From: a virus
IMG/VR virus record: IMGVR_UViG_3300013947_000006
Location: 1 to 58,032 of that record
Direction: 5' to 3' (one strand)
Length of the DNA: 58,032 nucleotides
This document shows positions 109 through 57,325 of the stretch, piece by piece. Under the pieces are notes generated by a model that worked only from the letters and a program-made list of their open reading frames with translations, was not told where the DNA came from and made no database searches. Within the stretch, counting starts at the first letter, position 1, and every line of letters starts with the position of its first letter. The translations under genes were made by a program, and so were the position numbers.

Positions 109-867
109 TTATCCAATCATTGCCTTAATCTTTGCAAGCAGCTCCTTGCTATCAGCAGCCTTGAGATGCTCGATGTCTACATCTGCAAGTGTCTCAGCCA
201 AGGCATCTTTAGTCTCATCAACCTTCACAACCTGTGTACGGCCTGTAGAAACTCTGATACTCTTGAGCTGCTCCTCAGCTACAAGTAATGCCTGCCAACG
301 AGGGTCCTCTTCGCTGAAGTCTGCTTTTGACTTCATGATAGACTTCTTGGACTGAACGTTGCGGATTTCTTTCTTAAGTCTGTCCTGGTCTTCCTTAAGC
401 TCTTCAAGCTGCTCAGCAGTGAAATCTACTGAACCAGACATGCGGCGTGCACCACCAGCGGACTTAACCTTGCCAGTTGCCTTTCTGATAAGGTTCTCAG
501 CAACCGCACCAGCCATCATACTCTTGTAGTTATCCATTGTCATGGCCTTACTCTTTGCACGAGAGCGCTTAGACTGCTGACTCTTCAACATACCGTCGAC
601 AGTTGCCTCATCAAGCTCTTTGATGAACTCAACATCTACAGTGTCGTAGTCAATCAACTTCGCAAGCAACGCATCCATTGCGTTGTGGTCATGCTTTGAA
701 GCTTCGAAGTCCTCACGGTACTCTTCAAGGTTGTCATTCAGCTTCTTGATGCACTCAGCGACAAGCTCATTTGCAACAGTTGTAAGCTGTGCAGTACCTG
801 CAAGATTTCTTGCGTTAGAAGTAGTTTCATTGTTTTCAGTTGCGTTGAACATTTCGTTAATAGACAT
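109..867 (-). CDS. Hypothetical coiled-coil protein (252 aa), paralog of 3884..4399
   Basis: ORF-track frame 109..897. AAAGGAG lies 6 nt upstream of the ATG at 867, so the start was moved. K/E-rich. IRNVQSKKSIMKSK block matches IRSIQSKKTLTKWL in 3884..4399. Confidence 0.75.
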   Translation of the reverse strand: MSINEMFNATENNETTSNARNLAGTAQLTTVANELVAECIKKLNDNLEEYREDFEASKHDHNAMDALLAKLIDYDTVDVEFIKELDEATVDGMLKSQQSKRSRAKSKAMTMDNYKSMMAGAVAENLIRKATGKVKSAGGARRMSGSVDFTAEQLEELKEDQDRLKKEIRNVQSKKSIMKSKADFSEEDPRWQALLVAEEQLKSIRVSTGRTQVVKVDETKDALAETLADVDIEHLKAADSKELLAKIKAMIG

Positions 868-962
868 AGTAGTCTCCTTTCTGTCCGCGTCATCCACGCG
901 GCTGCCACACTTTGCAGTGGCCTGCGTATTTGGTTAAGCTTCATTTCCTTAACTCTATACAT

Positions 963-991: not shown

Positions 992-1084
992 TATGTTTTG
1001 TAAATTCAATGCAGTCACTGTACAGTCTTTATTCAATTTGATATAACTGTTAGAACTAAGTACTTATTTCTTAACTCTGAATAT

Positions 1085-3883: not shown

Positions 3884-4399
3884 TTACATCAAGCTCTTAA
3901 GCAATTCTACAATTCTTTCCTGACTTAAGTTGCCTGAACTTTCAATTGTATCAATGATAGTCTGTACATCGGTTTTTCTAACATACTCATTATCAACCGG
4001 TTTTGTAGACTCTCTTCTTTCGATGAGCATTTTTTCAATCTCACAGGCTTTTCTATACTCATCATTATCACCCTCAACATCTGTCAACCATTTGGTCAAT
4101 GTCTTTTTTGACTGGATGGAACGGATGGCCTTTATAGTCTCATCATAATCAAGCTGGTCAACATCTTCCTGTGTGTACATTGTTACAGGCTTTTCTTTAG
4201 GGTCAAGTAACTGGCGTACCTCTTTTAAGACCTGCTCATATTTTACTGTATTAGTCATCTCTTCCTCGTAGGTCTTTTTGCCCTTCTGTTTTTTAAGTCT
4301 GCACTTGAGGGACTGCACCCTTTTAAGTTCCTTCGCTACTGCCTCCAGGTCATTGTTGAACTTTTCTGCTACCTCTTCAATTCTTGTCATGTCTGTCAT
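3884..4399 (-). CDS. Hypothetical protein (171 aa), paralog of 109..867
   Basis: GTGAGGAAA RBS; shares the IRxxQSKKxxxK block and acidic flanks with 109..867. Confidence 0.75.
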   Translation of the reverse strand: MTDMTRIEEVAEKFNNDLEAVAKELKRVQSLKCRLKKQKGKKTYEEEMTNTVKYEQVLKEVRQLLDPKEKPVTMYTQEDVDQLDYDETIKAIRSIQSKKTLTKWLTDVEGDNDEYRKACEIEKMLIERRESTKPVDNEYVRKTDVQTIIDTIESSGNLSQERIVELLKSLM

Positions 4400-4457
4400 T
4401 TTGATTTCCTCACTTTCAATTATTTTTTGAAGTTTTCATTTCTTAACTTCTATATTT

Positions 4458-10253: not shown

Positions 10254-10284
10254 CCAAACGACGTATAATATAAATAGGGGGTGT
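10254..10284 (+). promoter_or_regulatory. Late-type promoter/leader box 2 (upstream of scaffold)
   Basis: GCCAAACGACGTATAATATAAATAGGGGGTG; -10 at 10265-10270; -35 position TTATAC. Confidence 0.55.
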
Positions 10285-10289
10285 GACTT

Positions 10290-16121: not shown

Positions 16122-19100
16122 ATGGCTAGCTTTGCAAATTTGACTGCAAACTTAAATCTTAATATTCAAAACTTTGCAAGCAACATGCGAAGAGCTTCTA
16201 GCTTAGCAAACCAGTTTTCTGCCAACCTTAGAGGTCAGATTAACGGAGGAATGGTGGAGCCTGCTAAGAAGTCTAAGTTTGAGTTCAAAGATGTAGCTCG
16301 TATCGTTCAAGGTATTATGATTTCTAAAGTGTTCTACGGAGGATTGAATGCTATTAGAAGTGCTACTGATGCAGTCTGGGAATTTAGCCAGGAACTTGAG
16401 TATGCAAAGATTGCTTACTCTAACTTATTTGGTGACACTGCCCTAGCTGACGAATTCATCAATGTACTTAAGGACTTTGCGGCTAAAACGCCGTTCTCTT
16501 TCCAAGAGTCTGAAGCTGCGGCTAAGCGATTACTAGCATATGGTATTCAGTACAAGAACGTCATGTATGTAATGAATGGTGTTCTTGCTGCTTCATCTAT
16601 GCAGGGTAATCCACAAACAATTGAGTCCGTTTCAAGAGCTCTCGGTCAGATTTACACTAAGGGTAAATTGATGAACGAGGAAATGAGGCAGTTAGCTGAA
16701 GCAGGTATTCCTGCTTATGAAATCTTGCAGGAAAAGTTAGGACTTACTCAGAAGCAATTATCTGAGATTGGTAAACTTAACATTCCAGCAAGCACTGCAA
16801 TCAATGCTCTTGTAGATGGTATGACAGAACGTTTTGGAGGTGTTGTAGATGCTTCCTCTAAAACGCTTAAGGGTATCATCAGTAATATCAAAGACAATGC
16901 CAGCATGCTCTTCGCTGGCGTATTCGAGCCTTTAACGGTGTGGCTTAAGTCCGCCTTAAATGCTCTTGGAGAGTTCTTGTATAAGATGCGAGAAATCTTC
17001 GAACTTAAGGGCGTTGGAGGTGTGTTTGAAGCACTCTTCCCACCTGAACTACATGAAACACTGAGAATGTTTGTAGCTAATCTTGGTAATCTATTCCAAG
17101 CAGTTGTTAGAGTAGCAGCTGCTCTTGGTGGCTTACTGAGACCGGTACTTGAAGCACTAATTAGAGTATTTAATGCTTTTGCGCCTATTCTTACGACAGT
17201 ACTTAATGTATTGTCTGTTATGGTATCTTGGATTACGCATAATGCAACGGCTATGAAAATCCTTACAGCTGCTCTTGCAGCAGCTGCGGCGATGTGGGTA
17301 GTCTTTAAGGTGAAGGCAATAGCTACGTCTGTAGTTGCTGGAGTTATTACGCTAATCTCCAAAGCGCTTGCCGGGTTATCTGCAATGCTTACCTTCGTCG
17401 CTGCACATCCGTTCTGGTCATTGCTTATTGCTCTTACAGGATTGGTTGTAGGTCTCTCTGGTGGCTTTGGAAAGTTAAGTAACGCAATCAGTGGTATGTT
17501 CAAGAAAGTAACAGCTATCAATGGTATGGACCCTGATAAGATACTGCTACCATCACAGAAGGAAAGAGCTAATGACTTAAACAAGTTTAATGAAGCTCTT
17601 GATACCACTAAAGATAACATGGACGACTTAGCAGACTCTACTGGTAAAGCTACTAAGGCCGCTAAAGGTCTGCTTTCATTTGATGAAGTATTCAAGCTCA
17701 ACCAGCCTGATGAAGGCACTAAGAAAGGAGCTAATTCTGATACTGGCTTTGACTTAAATATTCCAGATATGTCCGGTATAGATGCTAGTACGTTCATTCC
17801 GGAAGTACCAAGCTTTGAGGGCTTTGCAGACAACTTCGTAACAAAAATGACGAAAGCTCTTAAGGATAAATTTGCAGCGGCAGGTCTTGGAGCTATCCTT
17901 GGAGCTATCCTTGGAGGCCTTATAGGTGGCCCTCTTGGAGCGAAGATAGGAGCTGTTGCTGGGGCTATCGCTGGACTGCTCTGGAATGCTATAGCTGATA
18001 AGCTTGGCCTTGGTCCTGAAGAGAAAAAGAAAGCAGCCATTACAATGGGTATAGGCACTGCTCTTGGAGCGATTCTAGGAGGCATCCTTGGTGGTCCGGC
18101 TGGAGCAAAAATTGGGGCAGTCATTGGAACATTGGCAGGTGGTATTTGGGGACTGATTGCGCAAGCGCTTGGTGTCACAGACGCTCAGCAGTATGTATCT
18201 TTAGCTGGCGCAGCTTTTTCAGGTTTCTTTGCTGCAATCGCTAAGTACATTATGGGTAGCACTGTTGTAGAAACTCTCAATAGTGCAGGTGAGTATGTCT
18301 TTTCAGGATTTGCACATGCGGCTGGCAGCAGTCTAAAAGATTGCTTAAAGACAGGTGTTATCGGTGCTATTGTTAGCCTAGGTGTTGGCCTACTCTCTAA
18401 TGCCTTATCTGCTTGGCTTAAGACAGAATTTGACTTAACAGACCAAGATATAAAGAATGGCTCAGTAGGTCAGTCTATAGGTAACATAATCGGTTCTATC
18501 ACAGGACTCATCCTTGGAGGACCTATTGGCTCTATTGTAGGTGGAGCTCTTGGTCAACTTGCAGGTACTATTGTAGGCGACTTCTGGTCTTACTTGAGTA
18601 CTACCCTTAAGGGCTCCATCATAGGTGGTACAGCTGGTTTGCCTATAGGAGCTTTAATAGGTACTATCTGTGGCTCTATTGGAGGTCCTCTTGGTGCAGC
18701 GCTCGGTGCTGTAGTTGGAGCAGCCTTAGGAGGCTTAATAGGTCTTATAGTAGAGCATTGGGAGCCTATAAAAGAATGGTTTACAAGTGCTGGAGAGAGC
18801 ATTGCAAGCTTTTTCTCTGGACTAGGTAAAAAGTTCAGCGAAGCTGGTAAAAGCATTTCCGGATTTTTCTCTGGTGTACAGCAAACTTTATCCGGAGTAG
18901 TTGGGGGTATCACTGGTACTCTTAGCAGTGTCTGGACATCTATATCTACAAGCGTGTCTCAATGGTTTGCACCGATTGGACAGTTCTTTACAGATGTAGC
19001 CACAGGAGTTGCAACATTTGCTTCTGACTTATGGACAGGTATCACAACGGTCTTTAGTGACCTTGTCACTGCTATCGGAACATTTATGTCTGATATATGG

Positions 19101-20255
19101 ACGGCTATTACAACAGTATGGAATGATATTGTTACAGCTATCGGAACTGTGATGGGTGACATCTGGACGGCTATTACAACGGTATGGAATGATATTTCTA
19201 CTGCAGTATCTACTGTATGTACGACTATATGGACAACTATTTCTAACATCTTTGGGTTCATTAAGGACCTGATTGTTAAAGTTGTAACTGACATATGGAA
19301 CGCTATCGTTCAATGGTTCACGCCTATTGCAGAAGAGATTGGTAGAGTATGCTCCGAAGCTTGGACAGCAGTTTCTACTTGGTTCCAAAGTATTCTTACC
19401 ACTATAACAGAAAAAGTAACAGCTGCTTGGACAGCAGTTTCTACTTGGTTCCAGAGTATATGGACCACCATTTCAGAGAAGCTTTCCGGTGCATGGCAAA
19501 CTGTTACTAAGTTCTTTGGTGATATTCTTACCACTATCACAGGTAAGGTAAAGGAAGCTTGGACAGCTGTTTCTACTTGGTTCCAAAATATTTGGAATGT
19601 AATAAAAGAAAAGATTTCTGGAGCGTATAGCTCCGTTAAGTCTTACTTTGGAGACATTTACACATCCATTAAGACGAAGGTATCTGACTCTTACAATTCT
19701 GTAAAGACTTTCTTTGGTAACATGTATAGTACCATGAAAGAAAAGATTGGCAGCATGTATACCACAGTAAAGAATGGCATAAGTAACATCTACCATGCCT
19801 TTACAGGCTGGATTTCTGACCTGTGGAATAATGTGTTCGGCAAATTCTTTGGTTGGATAAATGATGGTATCACTAAGCTCAGAGAATTCTTTGGTCTTAA
19901 TGATAAAGCTAAGAGCACTGATACAAGCTACACAAGCAATAACAGTAGTAGTCCTAAAGCAGGTCACGCTACTGGTGGTGTTTTCAACAGAGAACACATT
20001 GCAAGATTTGCTGAGGGTAATAAAGCAGAAGCGGTTATTCCTCTTGAGAATGCCGGAGCAATGCAGCCCTTTGTAGATGCTGTTGCTAATGGTATCACTG
20101 CTAGCTTAATGCCTATTGTAGCTAATATCTCTGGTAATCAGGGACAGTTACAGCCACTATACGTTGGAACGTTAATTGCAGATGAAAGGAGCCTGAAAGA
20201 GCTTAACCGTAAGATGCAAGTTATTCAGCTTCAAGAGAATAAGAGGAGGGGTTAG
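16122..20255 (+). CDS. Tape measure protein
   Basis: 1377 aa, the longest ORF; glycine-zipper hydrophobic segments (GAILGGLIGGPLGAKIGAV repeated); ~11- and ~20-residue W/F-periodic repeats; follows G/GT. Confidence 0.92.
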   Translation: MASFANLTANLNLNIQNFASNMRRASSLANQFSANLRGQINGGMVEPAKKSKFEFKDVARIVQGIMISKVFYGGLNAIRSATDAVWEFSQELEYAKIAYSNLFGDTALADEFINVLKDFAAKTPFSFQESEAAAKRLLAYGIQYKNVMYVMNGVLAASSMQGNPQTIESVSRALGQIYTKGKLMNEEMRQLAEAGIPAYEILQEKLGLTQKQLSEIGKLNIPASTAINALVDGMTERFGGVVDASSKTLKGIISNIKDNASMLFAGVFEPLTVWLKSALNALGEFLYKMREIFELKGVGGVFEALFPPELHETLRMFVANLGNLFQAVVRVAAALGGLLRPVLEALIRVFNAFAPILTTVLNVLSVMVSWITHNATAMKILTAALAAAAAMWVVFKVKAIATSVVAGVITLISKALAGLSAMLTFVAAHPFWSLLIALTGLVVGLSGGFGKLSNAISGMFKKVTAINGMDPDKILLPSQKERANDLNKFNEALDTTKDNMDDLADSTGKATKAAKGLLSFDEVFKLNQPDEGTKKGANSDTGFDLNIPDMSGIDASTFIPEVPSFEGFADNFVTKMTKALKDKFAAAGLGAILGAILGGLIGGPLGAKIGAVAGAIAGLLWNAIADKLGLGPEEKKKAAITMGIGTALGAILGGILGGPAGAKIGAVIGTLAGGIWGLIAQALGVTDAQQYVSLAGAAFSGFFAAIAKYIMGSTVVETLNSAGEYVFSGFAHAAGSSLKDCLKTGVIGAIVSLGVGLLSNALSAWLKTEFDLTDQDIKNGSVGQSIGNIIGSITGLILGGPIGSIVGGALGQLAGTIVGDFWSYLSTTLKGSIIGGTAGLPIGALIGTICGSIGGPLGAALGAVVGAALGGLIGLIVEHWEPIKEWFTSAGESIASFFSGLGKKFSEAGKSISGFFSGVQQTLSGVVGGITGTLSSVWTSISTSVSQWFAPIGQFFTDVATGVATFASDLWTGITTVFSDLVTAIGTFMSDIWTAITTVWNDIVTAIGTVMGDIWTAITTVWNDISTAVSTVCTTIWTTISNIFGFIKDLIVKVVTDIWNAIVQWFTPIAEEIGRVCSEAWTAVSTWFQSILTTITEKVTAAWTAVSTWFQSIWTTISEKLSGAWQTVTKFFGDILTTITGKVKEAWTAVSTWFQNIWNVIKEKISGAYSSVKSYFGDIYTSIKTKVSDSYNSVKTFFGNMYSTMKEKIGSMYTTVKNGISNIYHAFTGWISDLWNNVFGKFFGWINDGITKLREFFGLNDKAKSTDTSYTSNNSSSPKAGHATGGVFNREHIARFAEGNKAEAVIPLENAGAMQPFVDAVANGITASLMPIVANISGNQGQLQPLYVGTLIADERSLKELNRKMQVIQLQENKRRG

Positions 20256-27152: not shown

Positions 27153-28145
27153 ATGTCAAACAGTTCTTTAGTAAATTGTACAGTATTGAGTCCTAATCAT
27201 AGTGGTAAGCGCACTCATAAGATTGACCGTATCACGCCTCACTGTGTTGTAGGTCAGCTCTCTGCCGAGTCTATTGGAGGTTGCTTTACAAGCACCTCCA
27301 GACAGGCATCTTGCAACTATGGCATTGGTAAAGATGGTCGTGTATGCTTAATCGTTGATGAAGCAAATCGCAGCTGGTGTAGCTCAAGTAACGCCAATGA
27401 CCAGCGTGCTATCACTATTGAGTGTGCCTCTGACATGTCAGAACCTTACACTATGAATAGTGCAGTCTATAACAAGCTTGTAGATTTGTGCATTGACATT
27501 TGTAAGCGTAATGGCATTAAGAAGCTGCTTTGGTTCGCAGATAAGAATAAGTCCTTATCTTACGAGCCGGCGAACGGCGAGGCGGTGCTTACTGTACATC
27601 GTTGGTTTGCAAACAAGTCTTGTCCTGGCAACTGGCTGTATAGCCGCCTTGGGGACCTTGCCTCTAAAGTAAACGCCAGCCTCGGCAATGCAGTGCCACA
27701 GCAGCCTTCTAATTCTAAAGCTCTTTACAGAGTTCAGACTGGTGCTTTCAAGAATAAAAGCAATGCTCAGACTCTTGAGGCAAAGGTTAAGAAGGCAGGC
27801 TTTGAAACTTGTATTGCAGTTGTAGATGGACTGTACAAAGTACAGGTAGGGGCGTACTCTAAGAAAGAGAATGCAAATGCACAGGCTGCAAAGCTTAAAG
27901 CTGCTGGCTTTGATTGCTTTGTAACTACAAATGGTTCGTCTAGCTCGTCTAGCTCTGGCGCAACGATTAAGGCAGGCAGCAAAGTAAAGGTTAAGTCTGG
28001 CGCTAAGACTTATACTGGAGGCAGCGTTGCAAGTTTCGTCTATAAGGGAACTTACACTGTAGGTGAACTTAAGGGAGACCGTGCAGTGCTTGACAAAAAT
28101 GGCATTTGCACACCATTCAATGTAAAAGACCTTGTATTAGCTTAA
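27153..28145 (+). CDS. Endolysin: N-acetylmuramoyl-L-alanine amidase + SPOR repeats + C-terminal SH3-like module
   Basis: Amidase_2-like N-terminus (HCVVGQ...NYGIGKDG...ITIECAS...HRWFANKSCPG); two SPOR-like repeats (YRVQTGAFKNKSNAQ..., YKVQVGAYSKKENAN...). Confidence 0.85.
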   Translation: MSNSSLVNCTVLSPNHSGKRTHKIDRITPHCVVGQLSAESIGGCFTSTSRQASCNYGIGKDGRVCLIVDEANRSWCSSSNANDQRAITIECASDMSEPYTMNSAVYNKLVDLCIDICKRNGIKKLLWFADKNKSLSYEPANGEAVLTVHRWFANKSCPGNWLYSRLGDLASKVNASLGNAVPQQPSNSKALYRVQTGAFKNKSNAQTLEAKVKKAGFETCIAVVDGLYKVQVGAYSKKENANAQAAKLKAAGFDCFVTTNGSSSSSSSGATIKAGSKVKVKSGAKTYTGGSVASFVYKGTYTVGELKGDRAVLDKNGICTPFNVKDLVLA

Positions 28146-28403: not shown

Positions 28404-29132
28404 ATGAGTACTAAATACAAATACAGCGCCGTGGCGAAGCGACGCAGACAACGAAGGCTGATGAGACGTCGTATAGCTTGCCTTGTAGTTTCCGCAAGTA
28501 TCATAGCCGGTTCAACACATGCCTTCAATCAATATCACAAGAAAAGTATACAAGCTCTTCAAAGTGACATTGACAAGCTTAACCAACAGGTTACTGAGCT
28601 GACTACGAGGAATCAGGAACTCAGCGCCGCGCTGCAGCAATCCAACGACAAATTAAGATTGTTTGTAGATGACGCAGAGGTGCACGGCGCCGAACCTACA
28701 TACTACGACATTCCGTTGAGTAAAGACCTACAACTTTACACTTACAACAGATGTGTAGAGTATGACATTCCGGAACATTATGAACTTGTACTTGCTATGG
28801 TGTGGCAAGAAAGTAACTACACGGCAAACCTAGTTAGTCCTACGGATGATTATGGTATCATGCAAATCAATTCTTGTAATCATTCCTGGTTAGTAGATTT
28901 ACTTGGGCCTACTGACTTTCTTGATGCTAGCGACAACATCAACGCTGGCGTCTACGTCATATCTAAACTTCTTATTAAATACGGTGATGAGCATAAGGCT
29001 CTTATGGCCTACAACATGGGTGAGCATGGCGCGTCACTTAATTGGCAGGCTGGAAACTACACAAGCACTTATAGTCGCGGCGTCGTGGCGAAGCGTGAAG
29101 CAATCGAAGCTAATAACTACAACGCTAATTAA
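28404..29132 (+). CDS. Membrane-anchored lytic transglycosylase (SLT domain)
   Basis: N-terminal basic + TM segment (RRIACLVVSASIIAG), coiled coil, then SLT catalytic block VWQESNYTANLVSPTDDYGIMQINS. Confidence 0.8.
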   Translation: MSTKYKYSAVAKRRRQRRLMRRRIACLVVSASIIAGSTHAFNQYHKKSIQALQSDIDKLNQQVTELTTRNQELSAALQQSNDKLRLFVDDAEVHGAEPTYYDIPLSKDLQLYTYNRCVEYDIPEHYELVLAMVWQESNYTANLVSPTDDYGIMQINSCNHSWLVDLLGPTDFLDASDNINAGVYVISKLLIKYGDEHKALMAYNMGEHGASLNWQAGNYTSTYSRGVVAKREAIEANNYNAN

Positions 29133-29149
29133 GAACTGATTAAAATTGC

Positions 29150-29395
29150 TAAAAATAGGGAATATATATAAGGAAATAAATATAAATAAGAAAAAAGCCC
29201 AAATATCAATATTCAATCAAATTATCTTATTTTTTAACTTTCTTAACATTCTTAACCTTCTTAACTTTTTGGCAACTTTTGTTCGGTTTTCAATTTTCAT
29301 TTTGAAAAACTTAAAAACAAATCCTTATAGACGAGTTTCGAGGGAGTACGTCAAAAAGTTAGGAAGGTTAAGAAAGTTGAGATGTTAAGAAAATG
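29150..29395 (+). repeat. AT-rich iteron element, copy 1 (inverted arms of 9-bp TTCTTAAC units)
   Basis: Left arm ~29231-29271 (TTTTTAACt TTCTTAACa TTCTTAACc TTCTTAACt). Right arm 29352-29392 is its imperfect reverse complement. ~80-bp A/T spacer. Homologous to 56965-57325 in the opposite orientation. Confidence 0.85.
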
Positions 29396-29470: not shown

Positions 29471-29499
29471 TTTACTTTTAGGGGTAGGGGGTGTATAAT
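29471..29499 (+). promoter_or_regulatory. Sigma-A-type promoter at the start of the replication module
   Basis: TTTACT-17 nt-TATAAT. Confidence 0.65.
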
Positions 29500-29565: not shown

Positions 29566-29955
29566 ATGGCAAAGAAATTTGAAGTTGAAGTAACTGTTCC
29601 TGAAGGAATGAGCGCTGGTGACAAGTTCACTATCGAAGTCGAGGCTCCTGTAGCTGAGAAGAAACCGCGTGGTCAGCTGGCTGGTATCGCTCTTGAGGAC
29701 ATGACTGACGAGCAGCTTAAGCGTGAGATTATCAACGCAAACTCTGTTCTGTACAAGGCTAAGCAGCGTGGCGCTTCTGAGGAGACTATCGCAGCTAACC
29801 AGGCGCGTGTTGATGCAGCTAAGGCTGAGAAAGCTAAGCGTGCCGGCACTCCTGCAGAGAGTGAAGCTCCTAACGTTGAGGCAGCTATGGAGGGTAACAC
29901 TGAGGCTGCTGGTGAAGACGGCATGTACGACGAGCAGGCAGCTGCTGAGATGTAA
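29566..29955 (+). CDS. Hypothetical A/E-rich acidic protein (129 aa)
   Basis: ATG 29566 preferred over 29554 (which abuts the GAAAGGA RBS); first gene after promoter 29471. Confidence 0.65.
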   Translation: MAKKFEVEVTVPEGMSAGDKFTIEVEAPVAEKKPRGQLAGIALEDMTDEQLKREIINANSVLYKAKQRGASEETIAANQARVDAAKAEKAKRAGTPAESEAPNVEAAMEGNTEAAGEDGMYDEQAAAEM

Positions 29956-30189
29956 TTCTCACAGTATGAGGTGTAGTTGTTACACCTCAGCAATCGGCGT
30001 GTGTTCTTAGAATGCTCGCCGATTGTTAAGAGCCCATAAGGTCTCTAGCTGGTAAAGACGCGGGACCTCTTACTTTATGGACTCTTAACAGTCGGTGAAC
30101 AACTTCACAGACTAGTAGCGCCGCGGCATATGATTGAGTGTAGTTCATCCCTACTTCAACACAAGTGTATGCCACGGCACTCCTTCTAT

Positions 30190-30263
30190 GGCGGGGTAGA
30201 GCAGCTTGGTAGCTCGCTGGGTTCATAACCCAGAGGTCGGTGGTTCAAATCCATCTCCCGCAA
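30190..30263 (+). tRNA. tRNA-Met (CAT), initiator-type
   Basis: Hand-folded cloverleaf: G1:A72 mismatch, A11:U24, three G:C pairs closing the anticodon stem (CTGGG-TTCATAA-CCCAG). Very close to the E. coli tRNA-fMet layout. No encoded CCA. Confidence 0.85.
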
Positions 30264-30360
30264 TTATTGTCCTGGCAGACGAAACCAAAGTAAAGGACCG
30301 GATACATAAATGCGTTCATTGGGACATGACAGTTATGAAGCTGGGAAAGCTGTCAATTAT

Positions 30361-30433
30361 GGGGTATTAGCTCAGTTGGGAGAGCGCCTGCTTTGCAAGC
30401 AGGAAGTCAAGGGTTCAAGCCCCTTATGCTCCA
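30361..30433 (+). tRNA. tRNA-Ala (TGC)
   Basis: Cloverleaf with G3:U70 identity pair, anticodon loop TTTGCAA, T-loop TTCAAGC. Confidence 0.9.
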
Positions 30434-30437
30434 CTGT

Positions 30438-30513
30438 GTACTTGTAGCTCAACGGATAGAGCGCTCGGCTACGAACCGAGAGGTTGGGGGTTCGAAACCC
30501 TTCAAGTGCACCA
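30438..30513 (+). tRNA. tRNA-Arg (ACG), CCA encoded
   Basis: Acceptor gtacttg/caagtgc, D-arm gctc-aacggata-gagc, anticodon loop CTACGAA, T-loop TTCGAAA, 3' ACCA. Confidence 0.85.
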
Positions 30514-32551: not shown

Positions 32552-32749
32552 GTGCATGTAAAAACTGTCAATGTGACAAACCCTAGAAATGTGCTTGTGC
32601 AAGTGCCTAGCTTTGTAATTGCAAACTGGGGAGTTACACTTGGCAGCCATTTGGAGGTGCATTATGACGAACAGAAACAAACCGTTACCATCCGCCCAGC
32701 AGTACAGCGACGAAGCAACACTGTTAAGAAAAGTGATGGAGTGGCTTGA
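32552..32749 (+). CDS. AbrB/SpoVT-like DNA-binding protein (putative)
   Basis: VKTVNVTNPRNVLVQVPSFVIANWGVTLGSHLEVHYD swapped-hairpin-like sequence; GTG 32552 lies 9 nt after AGAAAGAGG (alternative ATG 32531). Confidence 0.5.
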   Translation: MHVKTVNVTNPRNVLVQVPSFVIANWGVTLGSHLEVHYDEQKQTVTIRPAVQRRSNTVKKSDGVA

Positions 32750-33012: not shown

Positions 33013-33579
33013 ATGCAGGATGACATCAATGCTACGATAGCCAAGCATCTTGGTCTTATCTTTAAGCAGCTTAATAAGTTCAATCTTGCTAAGGACCCTG
33101 AAGCAGAGAGTATTGGTTATGAGGCGCTTTACAATGCAATATTAACGTATGACCAAAACAAGAAAGTACGATTTTCTACATACGCTTCAGTGTGTATCTA
33201 CAATGCTTTGGGGTCATACGTAAGAACACAAAACAAACAGCGCCAGTTAGAAGTAATCTCTTACAACAATGTTGCTTACTCAGAAGATGGCACAGACCAT
33301 GAGTTTGTAGATTTTCTTTCAACACCTTCTGATGTAGAGCAGGACTTTATGAAGAAAGAACTACACAGGATTGTAAGGGAAGAATTTCAGAAACAGTATG
33401 ATACACTGACAAATAAGAAGCACCAAGTTATCATATCACTGTGGCGCGACTCAGAATATGAGGCTTCCATGGTATCGATAGCGAAACAAGCAGGCGTTTC
33501 TCAACCATATGTCAGTCAAGTCATAAATAGCTTCAAATTTAATTTAAGAAAGAAACTGGAGGAGCATTACTATGATTGA
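33013..33579 (+). CDS. Sigma-70 family RNA polymerase sigma factor (regions 2 and 4 only)
   Basis: Region 2-like YEALYNAILTYDQNKKVRFSTYASVCIYNAL; region 4 HTH SIAKQAGVSQPYVSQVINSF; 188 aa. Confidence 0.8.
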   Translation: MQDDINATIAKHLGLIFKQLNKFNLAKDPEAESIGYEALYNAILTYDQNKKVRFSTYASVCIYNALGSYVRTQNKQRQLEVISYNNVAYSEDGTDHEFVDFLSTPSDVEQDFMKKELHRIVREEFQKQYDTLTNKKHQVIISLWRDSEYEASMVSIAKQAGVSQPYVSQVINSFKFNLRKKLEEHYYD

Positions 33580-37131: not shown

Positions 37132-40101
37132 ATGCGCTGGAGTGAATACACTAATCGTATTCTCGCTGAGATAGACAATGAAGCCTTCTTTATGAATGAG
37201 CTTAAGAATATCCAGCGAAGAGGGCAGGAGATAAAAGCTGAATGCCCATTTAAGGAACTACACGAGTCACAAACAGACAACAATCCCTCGCTTACAGTCA
37301 ACTTAGCTAAAGGCGTTTACTACTGTAATAGCTGCCATTCTAAGGGCAACATACATACTATGTATAAGCACTTGTATGGCTTATCCAATGAAGAGGCTTG
37401 GTTCCAACTTGGTGACGCTTTGAAAATCCCAAGACCTGACGGTACCAAACCTACAAGACCAGATATTGATGTTGGATTGATACAGGAGTACCATCAAAAG
37501 CTTATGAGCTTGACCGGTCCAATAAGGGACATGTTGAAAGAGCGAAGAGGGTTAACTGATGAGACTCTGAAAAGGTTTCAATTAGGTTGGGATGGAGAGC
37601 GTATTACCATTCCAATTTATGACGAGTATAACACGCTTGTCAATTTTAGAAGGTACAAATGGAACTCAACTGATGACCAGTGGAAAGTACTTAACTATGT
37701 AGATGAATACAACAATTCTTATGGTGAAGTCCGTATATTCGGAATAGACCAGGTTGTAGACCCTGATGTAGAGTACATAGTCTGGGCAGAAGGTGAGATG
37801 GACCGTATATGTGCCGAACAGCATGGTTTCCCTACAGCTTGCGCCACATCTGGTGCTGGTACTTGGAAACCTGATTGGACGAAGCTTTTTAGAAATAAGA
37901 AGCGAGTCTATCTGGCTCAGGATAATGATGAGGCTGGGCGTATTGCGACGCAGAAACTTTGCGAGAAGTTGTATCGCGTTGTAGATGTCTATGTTATTAA
38001 CTGGCCTGAGAACTTCCCTGCTAAGGGAGACATTACAGACTTCTTTACAAAGTGTGGTCAGACGTCACAGGATTTCCAAACACTTCTTGACAACGCCACG
38101 CGCTACATCGACCCATCAATGGTTGAGGAGCGCGTAGCCGATGAGTCAGAAGCACAGGAAGTTCATTTGTCAGACAGTTCAGAAGCTGGTTTCTTTGGAA
38201 AGCGCTTGAGAATACCCGTCATGGTAAGTGGTAAGGATAGTACGCCTTACTTGTGTCCTAAGGTTATTCGAGCATTCTGCGGAGATGCAGCAGATGGTGA
38301 CAATAAGAAATGCTCAAATTGTCAGCTTGCCCTACACGCTGGTGAAATGGAAAAGACATTATCGTCCGTAGATAAGGACGTAATGAAACTTATCAAGTGT
38401 ACAGAAAAGCAGCAGATGGCTGTGATATACGAAATGCTTGGAGTCAATCCAAGATGCGACCGTTGCATGATAGAAGTCAAGGAGCACATGAACCTTGAAG
38501 AGCTGAGGCTTATTCCAAAAGCTGAAGCGAACTTCGGTTTCTCTAAAGAGCACGAATATGTAGTACGTACGGGATATTATATAGGGAATAACCTCAAAAC
38601 TAACAAGAGATACACCATGGCTGGTTATATGTATCCTGACCCTAATTCTCAGTATGCTACGTATGTGTTCGATAAGGCTTATCCAGAAAAAGACCTAATC
38701 AGTGACTTTGAACTTAACGAAGAAACGCTGGAGCACTTGAAAATGTTTCAGGTAAAACCAGGTCAGACTATCCGTGAGAAGTTCGATGAAATCCATGCAG
38801 ACTTGGAGCGTAACGTTACATATATCTGGGAAAGACGAAATGTAGCTTTTGCAGTAGATTTAATTTATCACACTGTGCTAAACTTCTATTTCCAGGAGCA
38901 GTACGTTAAGCGTGGTTGGGGTGAGCTTCTTATTATAGGTGACTCAGGACAGGCCAAAACTACAATTGTTGAAAGACTGATGCATCATTACAGACTTGGT
39001 GAATTACATTCTGGTGAGTCTTCAAGACGAACCGGTTTGGTCTATAACATGCAGCAGAATAATAAACGATGGTTTCTTGTTTGGGGTGCGTTTCCTCTTA
39101 ATGACGGAGGTTTGCTTACCATCGATGAGCTGTCAGGTTTAAGTGAAGATGACTTGGCAGTTATGTCCGATGTTCGTTCTAGTGGTATTGCAAAAGCTAC
39201 AGGAGTTATCACGGCTGAGACCACCAGTAGAACACGTGCTATCTACATTTCTAATCCTAGAAATGGTCGCCAGCTTAACTCAGAAACGTATGGTGTAAAT
39301 GCTGTGCTGAAGCTTATGGGCAAAGCAGAAGATGTTAGACGTCTTGACCTTGCAATGTCTGTTGCATCCGGTGACGTTGACCCATCTCTTGTTAACAGGT
39401 CTCTTAAAGACCTGCCACCTGTTCCACATGTATACACATCTGATTTATGTAATACTCGTGTGCTGTGGGCATGGAGCAGAAAGCCTGATGACGTTATCAT
39501 TACTGAGGACGCTACACAGCGCATTCTTGAATGTGCTACAAAAATGGGTGCTAAGTATTCATCTAAAATTCCTATTGTTGAGGCAGCTGACCAACGTATC
39601 AAAATTGCTCGTCTCGCCGTAGCCGCGGCATGCTGCGTGTTCTCTTCGGATGAGACTGGCCAAAAGGTTATAGTTAAGCCTGAGCATGTTGACTTTGTTG
39701 TAGATTTCATGGACGAGCTCTACTGTACGAAAAGCTTTGGCTATGACCGCTTGAGTGAACAGGATATGGTTACATCTGACACATCTGCTAATAACATTAG
39801 TAAGCTGAGGTCTCTGTTCTTAACACTGCCTCTTGTAGATGCTAATGAAATGGCTAAGATACTGTATCAGTTACCATACTTCAGCAGAGCTACACTTGAG
39901 GACTACACAGGCCTTTCAAAGGATGATTTGAAGATGCTGTTAAAGTATATGACTAATAATCATCTAGTAGATAAGGTTAAGGGTGACTATAGACGTTTAC
40001 CACTGGGTACTGAATTGTTTGAAAACTTAACTACAGTGCCTGTTACAAAAGCAGAAATTGAAGCAGCTAGAAAAGATTTCTATAGTGCTGCTGATATGTA
40101 G
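37132..40101 (+). CDS. DNA primase (Zn finger + TOPRIM) fused to MCM-like AAA+ helicase
   Basis: CHC2-type finger CPF...H...CNSCH; TOPRIM AEGEMD...LAQDNDEAG; MCM-like Walker A GDSGQAKT, Walker B TIDELS, sensor ISNPRNG, RRLDL arginine-finger-like block. Confidence 0.8.
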   Translation: MRWSEYTNRILAEIDNEAFFMNELKNIQRRGQEIKAECPFKELHESQTDNNPSLTVNLAKGVYYCNSCHSKGNIHTMYKHLYGLSNEEAWFQLGDALKIPRPDGTKPTRPDIDVGLIQEYHQKLMSLTGPIRDMLKERRGLTDETLKRFQLGWDGERITIPIYDEYNTLVNFRRYKWNSTDDQWKVLNYVDEYNNSYGEVRIFGIDQVVDPDVEYIVWAEGEMDRICAEQHGFPTACATSGAGTWKPDWTKLFRNKKRVYLAQDNDEAGRIATQKLCEKLYRVVDVYVINWPENFPAKGDITDFFTKCGQTSQDFQTLLDNATRYIDPSMVEERVADESEAQEVHLSDSSEAGFFGKRLRIPVMVSGKDSTPYLCPKVIRAFCGDAADGDNKKCSNCQLALHAGEMEKTLSSVDKDVMKLIKCTEKQQMAVIYEMLGVNPRCDRCMIEVKEHMNLEELRLIPKAEANFGFSKEHEYVVRTGYYIGNNLKTNKRYTMAGYMYPDPNSQYATYVFDKAYPEKDLISDFELNEETLEHLKMFQVKPGQTIREKFDEIHADLERNVTYIWERRNVAFAVDLIYHTVLNFYFQEQYVKRGWGELLIIGDSGQAKTTIVERLMHHYRLGELHSGESSRRTGLVYNMQQNNKRWFLVWGAFPLNDGGLLTIDELSGLSEDDLAVMSDVRSSGIAKATGVITAETTSRTRAIYISNPRNGRQLNSETYGVNAVLKLMGKAEDVRRLDLAMSVASGDVDPSLVNRSLKDLPPVPHVYTSDLCNTRVLWAWSRKPDDVIITEDATQRILECATKMGAKYSSKIPIVEAADQRIKIARLAVAAACCVFSSDETGQKVIVKPEHVDFVVDFMDELYCTKSFGYDRLSEQDMVTSDTSANNISKLRSLFLTLPLVDANEMAKILYQLPYFSRATLEDYTGLSKDDLKMLLKYMTNNHLVDKVKGDYRRLPLGTELFENLTTVPVTKAEIEAARKDFYSAADM

Positions 40102-43440: not shown

Positions 43441-43758
43441 ATGTATAAGAACAGAGAAGAATTACTTAAAGAATTAGAAGGTGCGAAAGTTGACAGAGAC
43501 GATGCACTTGCAAGTGCTGAAAACTCTAAGAAGCGTATCGAGCAGTTACATGCTGAGCTTGAAGAGTATAAGCAGCGTGATTGTATGAAAGCAGAGTTTG
43601 ACAAGGGTGCTAATCAGATTAAGATGCTCTACGATAGCTTTGTAGATGCTGGTTTCACTGCTGAGCAGGCTTTCGGTATTATCACAGCTATTCTTCCTGC
43701 AATGTTCAATCCGGCACAGGCTCCAAGTGTTGACAGACTTTTAAGAGTGTTACTGTAA
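43441..43758 (+). CDS. Hypothetical coiled-coil protein (105 aa)
   Basis: ORF track; TAATATG junction. Confidence 0.6.
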   Translation: MYKNREELLKELEGAKVDRDDALASAENSKKRIEQLHAELEEYKQRDCMKAEFDKGANQIKMLYDSFVDAGFTAEQAFGIITAILPAMFNPAQAPSVDRLLRVLL

Positions 43759-43970
43759 TGCAGTTTGAAGATGCCTTAAGAGAAGTAAAAGCTGGTAAAG
43801 GCATGCAACTACCTCAGTGGAGCCCTGAGGTAGTCATAAGATGTCAAGTGCCTGATGAGCATAGCAAAATGACTTCTCCTTATTTGTATGTGGACAGTCG
43901 CTTTGGCAGAGTGCCTTGGCGTGAAACATTTCCAGAGATGTTCGATTGTAGATGGGAGGTAGTAGAATGA
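43758..43970 (+). CDS. DUF2829-like protein (Tad2-like candidate)
   Basis: MQFEDALREVKAGKGMQLPQW ... VPWRETFPEMFDCRWEVVE follows the DUF2829 pattern (FxxALxxxKxGK ... PW ... DW.iv). Confidence 0.6.
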   Translation: MQFEDALREVKAGKGMQLPQWSPEVVIRCQVPDEHSKMTSPYLYVDSRFGRVPWRETFPEMFDCRWEVVE

Positions 43971-45516: not shown

Positions 45517-45753
45517 ATGGCCCAAATTAACATCACTACTACAGAAGAAGAGCAGAACTGCGTATTAGAAGCTATTAAGAAGCTTTCTGGTAAGACTGTT
45601 GCAGTATCTACTATTGCTAAAGAAGCTGGTATGAACCAGAATAGAGTGCGCTATGTAGTTTCAGACCTTGAAGAAGCTGGTAAGATTAAGCGCGTACCTA
45701 CTAAGGCTTTCAACGAGCACTACATTCGATACAGATATGAAGTGCTGGTTTAA
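45517..45753 (+). CDS. Winged-helix DNA-binding protein (putative)
   Basis: 78 aa; VSTIAKEAGMNQNRVRYVVSDLEEAGKIKR looks like a wHTH recognition helix plus wing. Confidence 0.45.
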   Translation: MAQINITTTEEEQNCVLEAIKKLSGKTVAVSTIAKEAGMNQNRVRYVVSDLEEAGKIKRVPTKAFNEHYIRYRYEVLV

Positions 45754-45779: not shown

Positions 45780-46025
45780 ATGAAAGAACCATTGAGATTG
45801 TATGGTACTGCTTCATGCCCGCAGTGCCAGGGTGCTAAAAAGTACCTCGAACAAAAACAGGTGCCGTTTGAGTACATTGATGTATTCGAAAGTCCTGAGG
45901 GTATGAAAGAATTAGAAAATCGCGGGCTTACTACTCTTCCAGTAGTTATGCTTAACGATGGTACCTCGTACGTTACTGGTTTTAATGCCAAAGCAATTGA
46001 TGACTTAATTAAGGAGGAGATGTAA
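45780..46025 (+). CDS. nrdH: Glutaredoxin-like protein NrdH
   Basis: 81 aa thioredoxin fold with CPQC active site, directly upstream of nrdD. Confidence 0.75.
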   Translation: MKEPLRLYGTASCPQCQGAKKYLEQKQVPFEYIDVFESPEGMKELENRGLTTLPVVMLNDGTSYVTGFNAKAIDDLIKEEM

Positions 46026-47791
46026 TGTTACTGGACACTAATAAAATTGTAGATGACTACATGTTGCAGCGCGATTGGCGCGTTAAGGAGAACAGTAATG
46101 CTCCATTCAGCTTTGGGCAGATGAATAAATACATTAACAACGCAGTATCTAAACAATACTGGGCTGAGCGTGTGTATGATGCTTCTGCATCTTCTGCACA
46201 TAATGATGGTCTTATTCATATTCATGATATGGGCGGCTTGACCATTTACTGCTGTGGTTATTCCTTACAGAAGGTTCTCGACTATGGCGTTAAGGGGGTG
46301 CCTAATATCCCAACCTCAAAGCCTGCTAAGCACTTCGACGCAGCACTCAACCAGCTGGCTAATATGCTGACTATCTTCCAGAATGAAATTATGGGAGCTG
46401 TTGCTTTTAGTTCATTTGATACTTTGCTTGCCCCGTTCATCAGAGTAGATAATCTGAGTTATAGCGAAATTAAGCAGAATATCCAGAACTATGTCTACTC
46501 TGTGAACTCAAACAGCAGAGCAGGTGCAGAGCCGGCATTCAGTAATCTTACCTTTGATTTGTTTCCGCCTAAGGACCTTAAGGACCAGCCTGCTCGTATC
46601 GCTAATGAGCTGCTTGACTTTACTTATGGCGACTGCCAGAAAGAGATGGATATGCTCAACAAGGCATTCTTTGAAGTAATGCTGGAAGGTGATGCTAATG
46701 GTAAGCCGTTTGCTTATCCTATTCCTACATACTCTATTGCAGATGGCTTTGATTGGGATAATCCAAACAATGACTTACTCTGGGAAATGGCTGGTAAGTA
46801 TGGTTATCCGTATTTCAGTAACTTCATGGGAAGCGACATGGACCCAAGTGATGTGCGCTCTATGTGTTGCAGACTTCGTCTTGACCTTTCAGAGCTTCAG
46901 CGCCGCAATGGTGGTCTGTTTGGCTCTGGTGACAGCACTGGCTCCATTGGTGTAGTTACTTTGAACTTACCTCGTATAGGCTATCTTACTAAGGGTCAGC
47001 CTGTAGAATCCTTGCTGTCCATGATTAAAGACTTCATGAACATTGCAAAGGATAGTCTTGAAGAAAAACGTAACTGGTTGAATATGCACTTAATCGGTAC
47101 AGGTATGCTGCCAGCCTTCGACACATACGTTGGTACCCTTAATAATCATTTCAGTACTATTGGTTTTGTAGGTATGAATGAAATGTGCGAGAACTTCATG
47201 GGTAAAGGCATTGGTACAAAAGAGGGTAAAGCATTGGCTGAGCAGGTACTTGATTATATGAGAGATGTTCTGCTTGCTTTCCAGAAAGCTACTGGTCATT
47301 TGTACAACTTGGAGGCTACACCTGCTGAGTCTACTTGTTATAGACTTGCTAAGTTAGACAAGAAGCTTTATCCTGACATTATCACACAGGGCAGCGGTGA
47401 CAGTGTATATTATACAAACTCTTGTCACTTACCTGTTAAAGAAGTGAAGAATATTGCTGCACTTCTCGACCATCAGGACTCTCTTCAGACTAAGATGACA
47501 GGCGGTACTGTTGTACATCTGTACCTGGCAAAAGGCATTAGTGGCAATCAGGCTAAGCAGATTGTAAGGCATACTTGTGAAAACTACTCCTTACCTTACC
47601 TGTCTCTCTCGCCTATTATTTGCTATTGCCCTGAATGTGGAGTGCTTGATGAGCCCGTAGACAAGTGTCCTCACTGTGGTGGTGTAACAAAGTACATGCA
47701 GCGCATCACTGGTTATATCAGAGATGTAGATAACTACAACCCTGGCAAGCTGCAGGAATTTCATGATAGAAAGCAAATTCATGTTGAATAA
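46025..47791 (+). CDS. nrdD: Anaerobic ribonucleoside-triphosphate reductase
   Basis: 588 aa; C-terminal CPECG...CPHCG zinc ribbon followed by glycyl-radical motif RITGYIR. Confidence 0.9.
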   Translation: MLLDTNKIVDDYMLQRDWRVKENSNAPFSFGQMNKYINNAVSKQYWAERVYDASASSAHNDGLIHIHDMGGLTIYCCGYSLQKVLDYGVKGVPNIPTSKPAKHFDAALNQLANMLTIFQNEIMGAVAFSSFDTLLAPFIRVDNLSYSEIKQNIQNYVYSVNSNSRAGAEPAFSNLTFDLFPPKDLKDQPARIANELLDFTYGDCQKEMDMLNKAFFEVMLEGDANGKPFAYPIPTYSIADGFDWDNPNNDLLWEMAGKYGYPYFSNFMGSDMDPSDVRSMCCRLRLDLSELQRRNGGLFGSGDSTGSIGVVTLNLPRIGYLTKGQPVESLLSMIKDFMNIAKDSLEEKRNWLNMHLIGTGMLPAFDTYVGTLNNHFSTIGFVGMNEMCENFMGKGIGTKEGKALAEQVLDYMRDVLLAFQKATGHLYNLEATPAESTCYRLAKLDKKLYPDIITQGSGDSVYYTNSCHLPVKEVKNIAALLDHQDSLQTKMTGGTVVHLYLAKGISGNQAKQIVRHTCENYSLPYLSLSPIICYCPECGVLDEPVDKCPHCGGVTKYMQRITGYIRDVDNYNPGKLQEFHDRKQIHVE

Positions 47792-56628: not shown

Positions 56629-56661
56629 AGGACCCGGAATAATATCCGGGTCCTTTGTTAT
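56629..56661. terminator. Bidirectional terminator between the rightward operon and leftward gene 56909..56658
   Basis: aggacccgga-ataata-tccgggtcct 10-bp stem followed by ttgttatt. Confidence 0.75.
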
Positions 56662-56909
56662 TGCAAATCTCTTGGTACTTTGTAACCTTTCTCTTTGAGC
56701 TTCAGGTACTCATCTACAATCTGCTCAAGCTTGACTTGGCGCTTGAGCCTAAAGTCAGACTTCTGTAAAGACTTGTAATTACTATACTTTGCATATCTTT
56801 TTCCACAATCTACACATCTGTCCGTATACTTGACATGTGCTTCACAATTCAGTTTACCACAAAACATGCATTTGCCTATCAGTATGTTTGAATGTTTCAT
56901 GCTAATCAC
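56658..56909 (-). CDS. Zinc-ribbon protein (83 aa)
   Basis: AGGAGGTG RBS; CMFCGKLNCEAH...CVDCGKRY. Confidence 0.7.
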   Translation of the reverse strand: MISMKHSNILIGKCMFCGKLNCEAHVKYTDRCVDCGKRYAKYSNYKSLQKSDFRLKRQVKLEQIVDEYLKLKEKGYKVPRDLQ

Positions 56910-56964: not shown

Positions 56965-57325
56965 AATATTATTTTCTTAACATTCTTAACATTCTCAACC
57001 TTTTGACGTACTCCCACTATTCGACCATCTATATAAAAACAAAAAATAAAATTTGTTTTTGTGTCGGTGAAATAAAATATGGGGTTGTCAAAAGGTTGAG
57101 AATGTTAAGAATGTTAAGAAAATTAAAAAGTTGAGAAAATGTAAGGATGTTGGGCTGTGACTATGCTAGAATGCTACACAGTGTCACTGCGCCCCGGTGC
57201 TGGTAACTACTAGACTGTTCAAAAGTGGTAAGAACTACAGAATATTGAAAAAATTTGAAATTGGGCCAAAACTATTTATTATTTATATCCTTATATATAT
57301 CTTTATTTTTTCAAATTTTGTACTG
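56965..57325 (-). repeat. AT-rich iteron element, copy 2 (inverted relative to copy 1; carries a ~100-bp insertion)
   Basis: Perfect 36-bp inverted arms 56972-57007 / 57087-57122 (ttttcttaacattcttaacattctcaaccttttgac), 79-bp A/T spacer. TTTTGACGTACTCCC (57001) is the reverse complement of 29342-29356; TCCTTATATATAT (57288) is the reverse complement of 29162-29174. Confidence 0.85.

Follow-up and report, generated by a model that had tools for sequence, protein, structure and literature searches.

Introduction

In the archaeal oriC, inverted origin recognition box (ORB) elements flank a DNA-unwinding element and the MCM helicase is loaded in an Orc1/Cdc6-dependent manner; archaea and eukaryotes need ORC/Cdc6 for the placement of MCM on duplex DNA. 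Classical iteron origins of the lambda O or plasmid Rep type consist of direct repeats of ~17-22 bp, as a rule accompanied by DnaA boxes and a neighbouring AT-rich region, and lie within or beside the initiator gene. The origins of the pathogenicity islands of Staphylococcus aureus (SaPIs) comprise 6-12 short iterons that surround an AT-rich centre, no fewer than two to a side and with the two sides pointing in opposite directions; they are read by a self-loading AAA+ helicase through its C-terminal winged helix. The helicase is fused to primase in SaPI5 and grouped with MCMs in the pre-sensor II insert clade, and one hexamer is thought to load on each side (PMC9371898). Cch2 of the staphylococcal cassette chromosome mec (SCCmec) follows a similar logic (PMC7581432). 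In BcMCM from a Bacillus cereus prophage, the MCM AAA+ core is described as fused to a primase in one polypeptide, which lacks the typical MCM N-terminus and carries instead a segment weakly similar to primases (PMC2715239, PMC3273815). Here we analyse 58,032 nucleotides of viral DNA (positions 1 to 58,032 of IMG/VR record IMGVR_UViG_3300013947_000006; hereafter the window), which bear two copies, A and B, of an element made of inverted arrays of 9-bp units around an AT-rich spacer, and which encode a DnaG-type primase fused to an MCM helicase.

Like the SaPI origins, the elements have inverted arms, with 3-4 units per arm in A, B and at least 22 relatives, and an AT-rich centre (67.5% AT in A, 69% in B, 63-87% in the family), except that the AT-richest tract lies here outside the distal arm. 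In contrast to the 5-6-nt SaPI iterons, the units are 8-bp cores on a 9-bp register, and two element copies are present per genome. The SaPI and SCCmec origins abut the rep gene, that of the SaPIs directly on its downstream side, whereas A and B are distant from the helicase gene; moreover, the helicase is an MCM by fold with a DnaG-type primase, and no SaPI Rep was found in the Foldseek top 50. The inverted sites around an AT-rich region and the MCM helicase are shared with the archaeal oriC; unlike the latter, the window has contiguous 9-bp unit arrays in place of single longer ORBs, a bacterial host and no recognisable Orc1/Cdc6-like gene among the ~55 open reading frames (ORFs) scanned against Pfam, PHROG and NCBIfam, which is the scope of all the family searches below. 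The resemblance to BcMCM, as described, lies in a phage-borne MCM AAA+ core joined to a primase in one polypeptide, and the difference in the DnaG type of the primase here and in the ~500 columns over which the model aligns with full MCMs. Unlike a classical iteron origin, the elements have 9-bp units in inverted arrays and no DnaA-box cluster, and no O/Rep-type gene was recognised. By analogy, the element would work like a SaPI-type or an archaeal-type origin, yet we file it in neither family because it stands apart from the helicase gene, this helicase belongs to the MCMs and not to the SaPI Reps, and Orc1/Cdc6 was not recognised in the scans. What distinguishes it are the contiguous 9-bp inverted arrays, the two mirror copies per genome and the occurrence in an abundant phage family that carries a DnaG-MCM fusion and had not been described before.

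Results

Two homologous elements of inverted 9-bp units

A sequence-only reading of the window had described one element at 29231-29392, in which a spacer of ~80 bp is enclosed by inverted arrays of 9-bp units. The repeat search clearly showed this arrangement, with arms of 43 nt each (29229-29271 and 29352-29394) that are 81% complementary and lie 80 nt apart; the inner units of this element, A, are 100 bp apart, centre to centre. Two of the details put forward held in part. The 9-bp register is kept overall, with the exception of one 8-bp step in the right arm that recurs in relatives; and the spacer is AT-rich, but only moderately (67.5% AT vs a genomic 57%); among all 80-mers of the genome, AT content is highest (85%) at 29161-29240, just outside the left arm. 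The 80-aa ORF 29146..29388, which exists across A, was rightly regarded as spurious, no frame being kept open in relatives.

The single element of the earlier description is thus one of two: its AT-richest flank, single units at promoters (see below) and a second, homologous element B at 56965-57137 had been overlooked. B is oriented opposite to A, its inner units are 103 bp apart, and its arms include 37 nt of perfect complementarity (57087-57123 vs 56971-57007). The plus strand of A aligns with the minus strand of B across both arms and a GGGAGTACGTCAAAA box beside the promoter-proximal arm. The AT-boxes outside the distal arms of A and B are homologous as well (alignment score of 52 vs a shuffle maximum of 39); they top the genome in AT-richness and occupy ranks one and three in the list of its least stable 60-mers. 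The idea that arms and spacer form a module inserted at different sites of a common backbone was ruled out, given that the AT-box homology is significant and the GC-box similarity is not. By eye, a TTGACG box is followed by TATA-like hexamers at a spacing of 18-21 nt in A, B and the related locus L014, which had suggested an inward-facing promoter; in other relatives, inspected likewise, the spacing is different or such a pair is absent.

The repeat signal of A and B greatly exceeds what chance would give. For exact TTCTTAAC, 16 occurrences compare with 2.7 expected, a count reached in 0 of 100 shuffles. With a motif-free detector, A and B were the only spaced inverted repeats of the genome (scores 22 and 37), while 29 of 30 Markov-random genomes had none and the remaining one scored 17. 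The top three period-9 windows, with 24, 22 and 21 of 27 matches, all fall within A or B; the random maximum was 19. No DnaA-box cluster was found at A or B.

Conservation of units, arms and spacer in related phages

Relatives were gathered from viral contigs by pattern searches and by protein-anchored searches; with the primase-MCM as an anchor, 51 loci of 48-100% identity were recovered. The search for the motif in other phages that the sequence-only reading had proposed gave a clear answer: the same element lies in the same place, and the order lysis genes, element, first early gene (a homologue of p129, see Table 1) is kept in at least 22 related contigs with helicase identity down to 66%. 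The A-type architecture was not found in a relative with 48% helicase identity.

The logo of 111 units from 14 elements reads W-T-C-T-Y-A-A-C-n. Position 2 is T in 100 of the 111 units, though it had been left free by the search pattern, and position 9 carries 0.23 bits, i.e., is free. Units follow each other at a step of 9 bp, and the exceptions of 8 and 17 bp recur at the same places. In an alignment of 12 genomes, nearly all invariant columns sit in the arms, and the spacer retains only its length, AT-richness and a loose TATAGAC patch. In 19 elements of A and B types, the inner units are set 84-113 bp apart (92-103 in most), and the spacers have 63-87% AT vs 52-60% for the loci.

Complementarity of the arms varies. 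In L040 the arms differ in unit type (TACTTAAC six times vs TTCTYAAC) and are systematically mismatched, while L052/53 have perfect arms of 66 nt. The sequences of the perfect arms, in L052/53 as in B of the window, point to occasional arm-to-arm homogenisation rather than to selection for pairing. In addition, the strand whose folding is energetically favoured differs between A and B.

B-type elements are present in a close clade (L019, L021, L022, L020) and in the more distant L098, L104 and L107. Their units drift in relatives, to ATCTTAAC, TTCTGAGC, TTTTGACG (L101), TTGGGTAT (L102) and TGTATAAT-like (L106), and the B element of L101 has 39-nt arms that are 95% complementary. TCTYAAC is retained in the A elements of two of these genomes, those of L102 and L106, as seen in L043 and L066. 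TTTTGAC(G), the innermost unit of nearly every arm, is two transitions away from TTCTTAAC.

Wherever a gene accompanies B (L020, L021, L022, L098, L102, L103, L106, L107), its product is a small Zn-ribbon protein that evolves fast and is sometimes tandem-duplicated within one ORF. This gene is absent in L101, where B follows directly after a terminator with neither an adjacent gene nor a promoter; B is therefore not simply the operator of the Zn-ribbon gene. The Zn-ribbon protein was also rejected as the reader of the units: its divergence suggestively parallels that of the B units, but L103 breaks the pattern, the gene is missing from L101, and A keeps TCTYAAC where the protein has diverged.

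Bacterial genomes were searched for a clue to the host or a host factor and gave none: 69 loci had tandem TTCTTAAC arrays, none with the inverted layout or phage homology. These arrays (L125-L193), all in one orientation only, are from Nostoc, Prevotella/Bacteroidales and Endozoicomonadaceae genomes. A different arrangement was seen in the unrelated viral contigs L002, L006, L010, L013 and L015, where (TTCTTAACA)3-6 is directly followed by ~5 copies of an 11-bp repeat (e.g., L006 6434-6536); these repeats lie inside a 294-aa ORF without a Pfam match, which could be an origin within an initiator gene, as in lambda O.

Position of the elements in the phage genome

Element A follows the last lysis gene and precedes a sigma-70-like promoter, which is upstream of p129 (29566-29955), three tRNAs and the replication genes; the family scans thus bore out its location at the boundary of the late and early/replication modules, and the promoter that had been proposed at 29471 does exist, 77 bp beyond the right arm. 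The lysis genes identified are an Amidase_2 + SPOR endolysin (27153-28145) and an SLT transglycosylase (28404-29132). No obvious intrinsic terminator of the late operon was found before A. Element B is flanked by the small minus-strand Zn-ribbon gene p83 on one side and, on the other, by ~6 kb of small genes that are encoded on both strands and extend to the terminase genes. The coordinates of the features are collected in Table 1.

The assembly is circular or terminally redundant with a unique length of ~57,954 bp, bases 57955-58032 being identical to 1-78 (a 78-bp overlap). On the circle, A and B are mirror-oriented, separated by 27.7 and 30.2 kb, and divide it into late, early and pre-early blocks such that the early/replication module is bracketed. 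The peptidoglycan amidase with a SPOR domain, the SLT domain and Shine-Dalgarno (SD) sites on the genes show that the host is a bacterium. Among isolated phages there is no close relative: TerL is 44% identical to that of psiM2, and the primase-MCM is 31% identical to that of Microbacterium phages. Besides the primase-MCM fusion, the phage encodes a SNF2 helicase, a sigma factor, an ATP-dependent ligase, RNase H, a RecE-like exonuclease, a family-A DNA polymerase and an anaerobic ribonucleotide reductase. The ORFs scanned included no recognisable gene for an integrase, a repressor, ParA/ParB or a protein of the lambda-O/Rep or Orc1/Cdc6 type. Over the whole window, Rfam at the gathering threshold returned only the three tRNAs and no match at the elements.

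Table 1. Coordinates of the elements, promoters and genes considered in the window
Feature	Position	Strand	Remarks
AT-box outside the distal (left) arm of A	29142..29228	+	homologous to the AT-box beside B
Element A, distal arm	29231..29276	+	TTTTTAACt TTCTTAACa TTCTTAACc TTCTTAACt (29231-29266), then inner variant unit TTTTTGGCAAC
Element A, spacer core	29277..29341	.	TTTTCAA...TTGAAAA dyad and TCCTTATAGAC patch
Conserved non-repeat box GGGAGTACGTCAAAAA adjoining the proximal arm of A	29342..29357	+	reverse-complemented in B too
Element A, proximal arm	29358..29391	-	GTTAGGAAg GTTAAGAAa GTTGAGAt GTTAAGAA; four units read on the minus strand
Sigma-70-like promoter of the early operon	29471..29499	+	TTTACT-17-TATAAT; first gene p129, 29566-29955, follows the element in all relatives
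DnaG-type primase fused to MCM helicase	37132..40101	+	putative self-loading initiator
Codons of the C-terminal winged helix	39841..39996	+	residues ~904-955; nearly invariant across the family
p83, small Zn-ribbon protein gene beside the B proximal arm	56658..56909	-	80 aa from the SD-preceded ATG at 56900
Element B, promoter-proximal arm	56974..57017	+	TTCTTAACa TTCTTAACa TTCTCAACc, then TTTTGACG and box GTACTCCCAC
Element B, spacer core	57018..57086	.	full spacer 57000-57094 (95 bp), 69% AT
Element B, distal arm	57087..57137	-	GTCAAAAG GTTGAGAAt GTTAAGAAt GTTAAGAA; outlying GTTGAGAA at 57130-57137
AT-box beside the B distal arm	57241..57320	.	84% AT; tied second most AT-rich 80-mer of the genome
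Single GTTAAGAA unit	1068..1075	-	9 nt past TATAAT of a TGTACA-17-TATAAT promoter; upstream of gene 897..109
Single GTTAAGGA unit	946..953	-	same position in the tandem second promoter; upstream of gene 897..109
Single GTTAAGAA unit	4440..4447	-	10 nt past TATAAT of a TTTACA-17-TATAAT promoter; upstream of gene 4399..3884

Single units at early promoters

Seven exact units occur in isolation; two of these are minus-strand units placed 9-10 nt downstream of the TATAAT of good sigma-70-type promoters. The window has two pairs of tandem sigma-70-like promoters on this strand (~1120-1060 and 1000-940; 4500-4440 and 4600-4540), and in three of these four early promoters a single GTTAAGRAA unit is found at about +3 to +12, an arrangement kept in L021 and L022. 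This operator-like position suggests that the reader of the units probably acts on transcription as well. The arrays of A and B are positioned otherwise: 77 bp separate the end of the proximal arm of A from the -35 downstream of it (arm edge at about -112), and ~46 bp separate that of B from the -10 (edge at about -53), with no phasing in common.

Candidate readers of the units

By sequence, the primase-MCM matches MCMs and DnaG primases, and phmmer matches in the PDB are to these only; its primase part is of the DnaG type, with a Zn-ribbon and Toprim. The AlphaFold2 model of residues 485-989, built on an alignment of 75 sequences, had a mean pLDDT of 90.3 and a pTM of 0.85 and ended in a canonical winged helix (~904-955). 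The Foldseek top 50 of the model consisted of archaeal and eukaryotic MCMs (E ~1e-16, up to ~510 aligned columns). Judged by the model, the phage helicase is a true MCM in its fold, with a C-terminal winged helix. The winged-helix segment is near-invariant across the family, in parallel with the conserved TCTYAA core of the units, and by analogy with the SaPI helicase this is consistent with the MCM winged helix being a candidate reader of the units.

The sequence-only reading had named two more candidate binders. For the "AbrB-like" protein (32552..32749) no support was obtained from Pfam, PHROG or NCBIfam, and the winged-helix protein encoded at 45517..45753 had weak matches only. The product of p129, whose N-terminus looks AbrB-like by eye, was ruled out as the reader, as this N-terminus does not track the unit type: L065 combines the N-terminus of the window type with other units, and L047 a Zn-finger N-terminus with the same units. 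The protein has no match in Pfam, PHROG or NCBIfam, and its PDB matches are designed helical repeats only. Apart from the question of the reader, p129 is notable for a variable N-terminus of ~30 aa, a centre with almost no variation (KKPRGQLAGIALEDMTDEQLKREIINANSVLYKAKQRGA) and an acidic tail; none of its 823 homologues is named or has a Pfam domain. The minus-strand early proteins 897..109 and 4399..3884 share a short motif similar to p129, which may be a host-takeover factor.

Other features of the window

The Zn-ribbon of p83 weakly resembles the N-terminus of a TerS-like protein (E 0.011). The promoter/RBS (ribosome-binding site) cassette of p83, at ~56910-56930, lies directly downstream of the B proximal arm. 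This cassette, CGTATAATATAAwTAGGrGGTG, recurs at 5165-5200, 10259-10292 and 56930-56907 (minus strand), where it precedes TerS, a head-region gene and p83, and is also present in loci L078-L097; its -10 is just ~7 nt from the SD site. Its use as a query to collect B elements was rejected, as it is a generic motif of the phage family.

Between small genes near the circular junction there are GC-rich non-coding paralogous segments (~1180-1430, 2217-2403, 3239-3414, 57656-57694), to which a palindrome at 2823-2854 with copies at 3187-3214 belongs; they have no Rfam match, the sole sub-threshold match being a hairpin. Direct repeats of ~33-63 nt, 86-97% identical, are found at 19098-19592 inside the 1377-aa ORF 16122-20255, which, by its size and position, is presumably the tape-measure gene. 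The window also bears a tRNA cluster (Met, Ala, Arg; 30189-30513), the phage sigma factor gene (33013-33579), a gene for a Tad2-like (anti-Thoeris) protein (43758-43970) and the anaerobic ribonucleotide reductase NrdD/G (46025-48245), which points to an anaerobic host.

Discussion

Because the unit positions are fixed and position 9 is free, the arms need not be complementary and the spacer is constrained, we read A and B as double-stranded DNA recognised by a protein on two opposed arms at a fixed distance. A protein-read bipartite site of some kind, as opposed to a hairpin, is very probable from the sequence comparisons, and the repeats were in this sense properly called iteron-like. The arms could instead pair as RNA or single-stranded DNA, with possible roles as a signal for single-strand initiation or, where the late transcript ends, as a long hairpin that serves as an RNase III-type site of processing or stabilisation or as a terminator. 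The strands do fold better than shuffles (as DNA, -34.4 kcal/mol with z -6.4 for A and -49 kcal/mol with z -12.5 for B), perfect arms occur in the window and in L052/53, and the late operon has no obvious terminator before A; nevertheless, it is the unit sequence at fixed positions and the 9-bp register that are conserved, not pairing, the L040 arms are mismatched throughout, the difference in the favoured strand speaks against the idea of a strand-specific RNA hairpin with a G-U bias, and Rfam is silent at the elements, so we regard pairing as distinctly unlikely. Cruciform extrusion in duplex DNA is disfavoured by a spacer of ~80 nt, all of which must melt, and this suggestion of the sequence-only reading is weakened further by the unconserved complementarity in L040. 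Assembly of other proteins on the DNA, be it at a small-terminase packaging site, a partition or positioning site, a pause or boundary of DNA entry or a bipolar fork barrier, is unlikely too. Small terminases bind arrays of short repeats, p83 has its weak TerS-like resemblance, and A and B split the circle into blocks; yet the elements are 24 kb and ~6 kb from the terminase genes, number two per genome and show no link to physical genome ends, the 78-bp overlap of the circular assembly being elsewhere. A partition site, which had also been suggested, lost ground as no ParA/ParB-like gene was found. It is highly improbable that the elements are selfish or neutral repeats without function, such as a MITE-like (miniature inverted-repeat transposable element) insertion or a slippage product: two copies with terminal inverted repeats and sporadic homogenisation of the arms would fit, but A and B have no target-site duplications, the two copies are the only ones and stay syntenic in at least 22 genomes whose flanking proteins diverge to ~60% identity, and the arms are better conserved than the spacer, the length of which is constrained.

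Two explanations then carry most weight. The one that we put first, plausible by analogy though a little short of probable, is that A and B are replication origins of a lytic-type phage, possibly doubling as regulator sites. It is favoured because the arms are opposed, the spacer is constrained in both length and AT content and the AT-richest DNA adjoins; because the elements are independent of neighbouring genes and of promoter phasing; and because the MCM-based replisome has no recognisable separate initiator or loader. The match to SaPI-type origins (PMC9371898), together with a primase-MCM bearing a conserved winged helix, strengthens it. The other explanation, possible but less probable, is purely transcriptional control by a phage or host regulator of WTCTYAAC, such that single sites at about +1 would repress the pre-early promoters, and the arrays upstream of the promoters at 29471 and of p83 would activate, insulate or nucleate repression at the boundaries of temporal modules. 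The single units at three early promoters lend it real support, and their conservation in relatives adds to it; A and B each lie upstream of a promoter-RBS-gene unit in the same relative orientation and bracket the early/replication module, the p129 start lies at a rather uniform distance (141-190 bp) from the A proximal arm, and the Zn-ribbon gene tends to diverge together with the B units. On the other hand, a regulator needs neither inverted arms nor a spacer constrained in length and AT content nor the AT-richest tract; the arrays do not overlap the promoters and have no common phasing with them; downstream of B in L101 there is neither gene nor promoter; the units could not be linked to any regulator with a recognisable DNA-binding domain, p129 failing to co-vary; and the promoter sites may share ancestry, so that they are not fully independent. 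Arrays of short repeats are also read by ribbon-helix-helix (RHH) proteins, as by omega of pSM19035 (7-bp heptads) and MetJ (8-bp met-boxes). With RHH operator or centromere arrays the elements share contiguous short direct and inverted repeats upstream of promoters, and one RHH protein reads both arrays and single sites; they differ in that no RHH or ParA gene was found, the arrays are off the promoters, and two arms are set around a constrained spacer.

Several observations weigh against the assignment of A and B as origins read by the primase-MCM. A simple origin does not need two copies per genome, and the single units at +1, as well as the position of the elements upstream of promoters, suit a transcription factor equally well. 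The helicase gene is not adjacent, A lying 7.7 kb upstream and B 17 kb downstream of it. The B units drift (TTCTGAGC, TTTTGACG, TTGGGTAT, TGTATAAT-like) where the MCM and, in the cases examined, its winged helix stay conserved, which leaves two options: B is bound there by a different reader, or the units are not read by the MCM winged helix. A winged helix at the C-terminus is common to MCMs in general, and in cellular MCMs it does not read the origin. GC skew is monotonic and tracks gene orientation, without a switch at A or B. Finally, neither the co-variation of identity of 27 early proteins with the iteron groups nor a screen of specificity-determining positions in 11 proteins yielded a reader candidate; little co-variation is to be expected, however, because the A variants share the TCTYA core.

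If A and B are indeed origins, initiation may proceed as follows. A sequence-specific winged-helix reader, the leading candidate being the C-terminal winged helix of the phage DnaG-primase-MCM as a self-loading initiator helicase, would bind the 3-4 contiguous WTCTYAAC units of each arm. Owing to the inverted arms, two assemblies would face each other over a fixed spacer, with ~100 bp between the inner units. The AT-rich spacer would melt easily, and immediately beyond the distal arm comes the AT-richest DNA of the genome. Once the strands had melted, a pair of helicase rings could be loaded and synthesis could run in both directions, the primase being at hand through its fusion to the helicase. 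Pre-early promoters with a single unit at about +1 could be damped by this reader as well. Dual roles of initiator and repressor are known for DnaA, RepA of pSC101 and the SV40 T antigen. The complete scheme, in which the phage DnaG-MCM reads its own bipartite origin via the winged helix and self-loads as two opposed rings without a loader of the ORC/Cdc6 type, while the two mirror origins bracket the replication module and shut off the pre-early promoters, is doubtful as a whole.

The phage family concerned is abundant, uncultured and large, as judged from the 823 homologues of the gene adjacent to A and the 51 helicase loci. The element is a landmark of the late/early boundary in its genomes and will be a clear cis-element once such a phage is isolated. 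If it were only a regulator site, the arrays and single +1 sites would make up a compact regulon governing the early-gene switch. If A and B are origins read by the phage MCM, they would provide a minimal one-protein, sequence-defined system for the placement of MCM on duplex DNA and for the orientation of the two rings.

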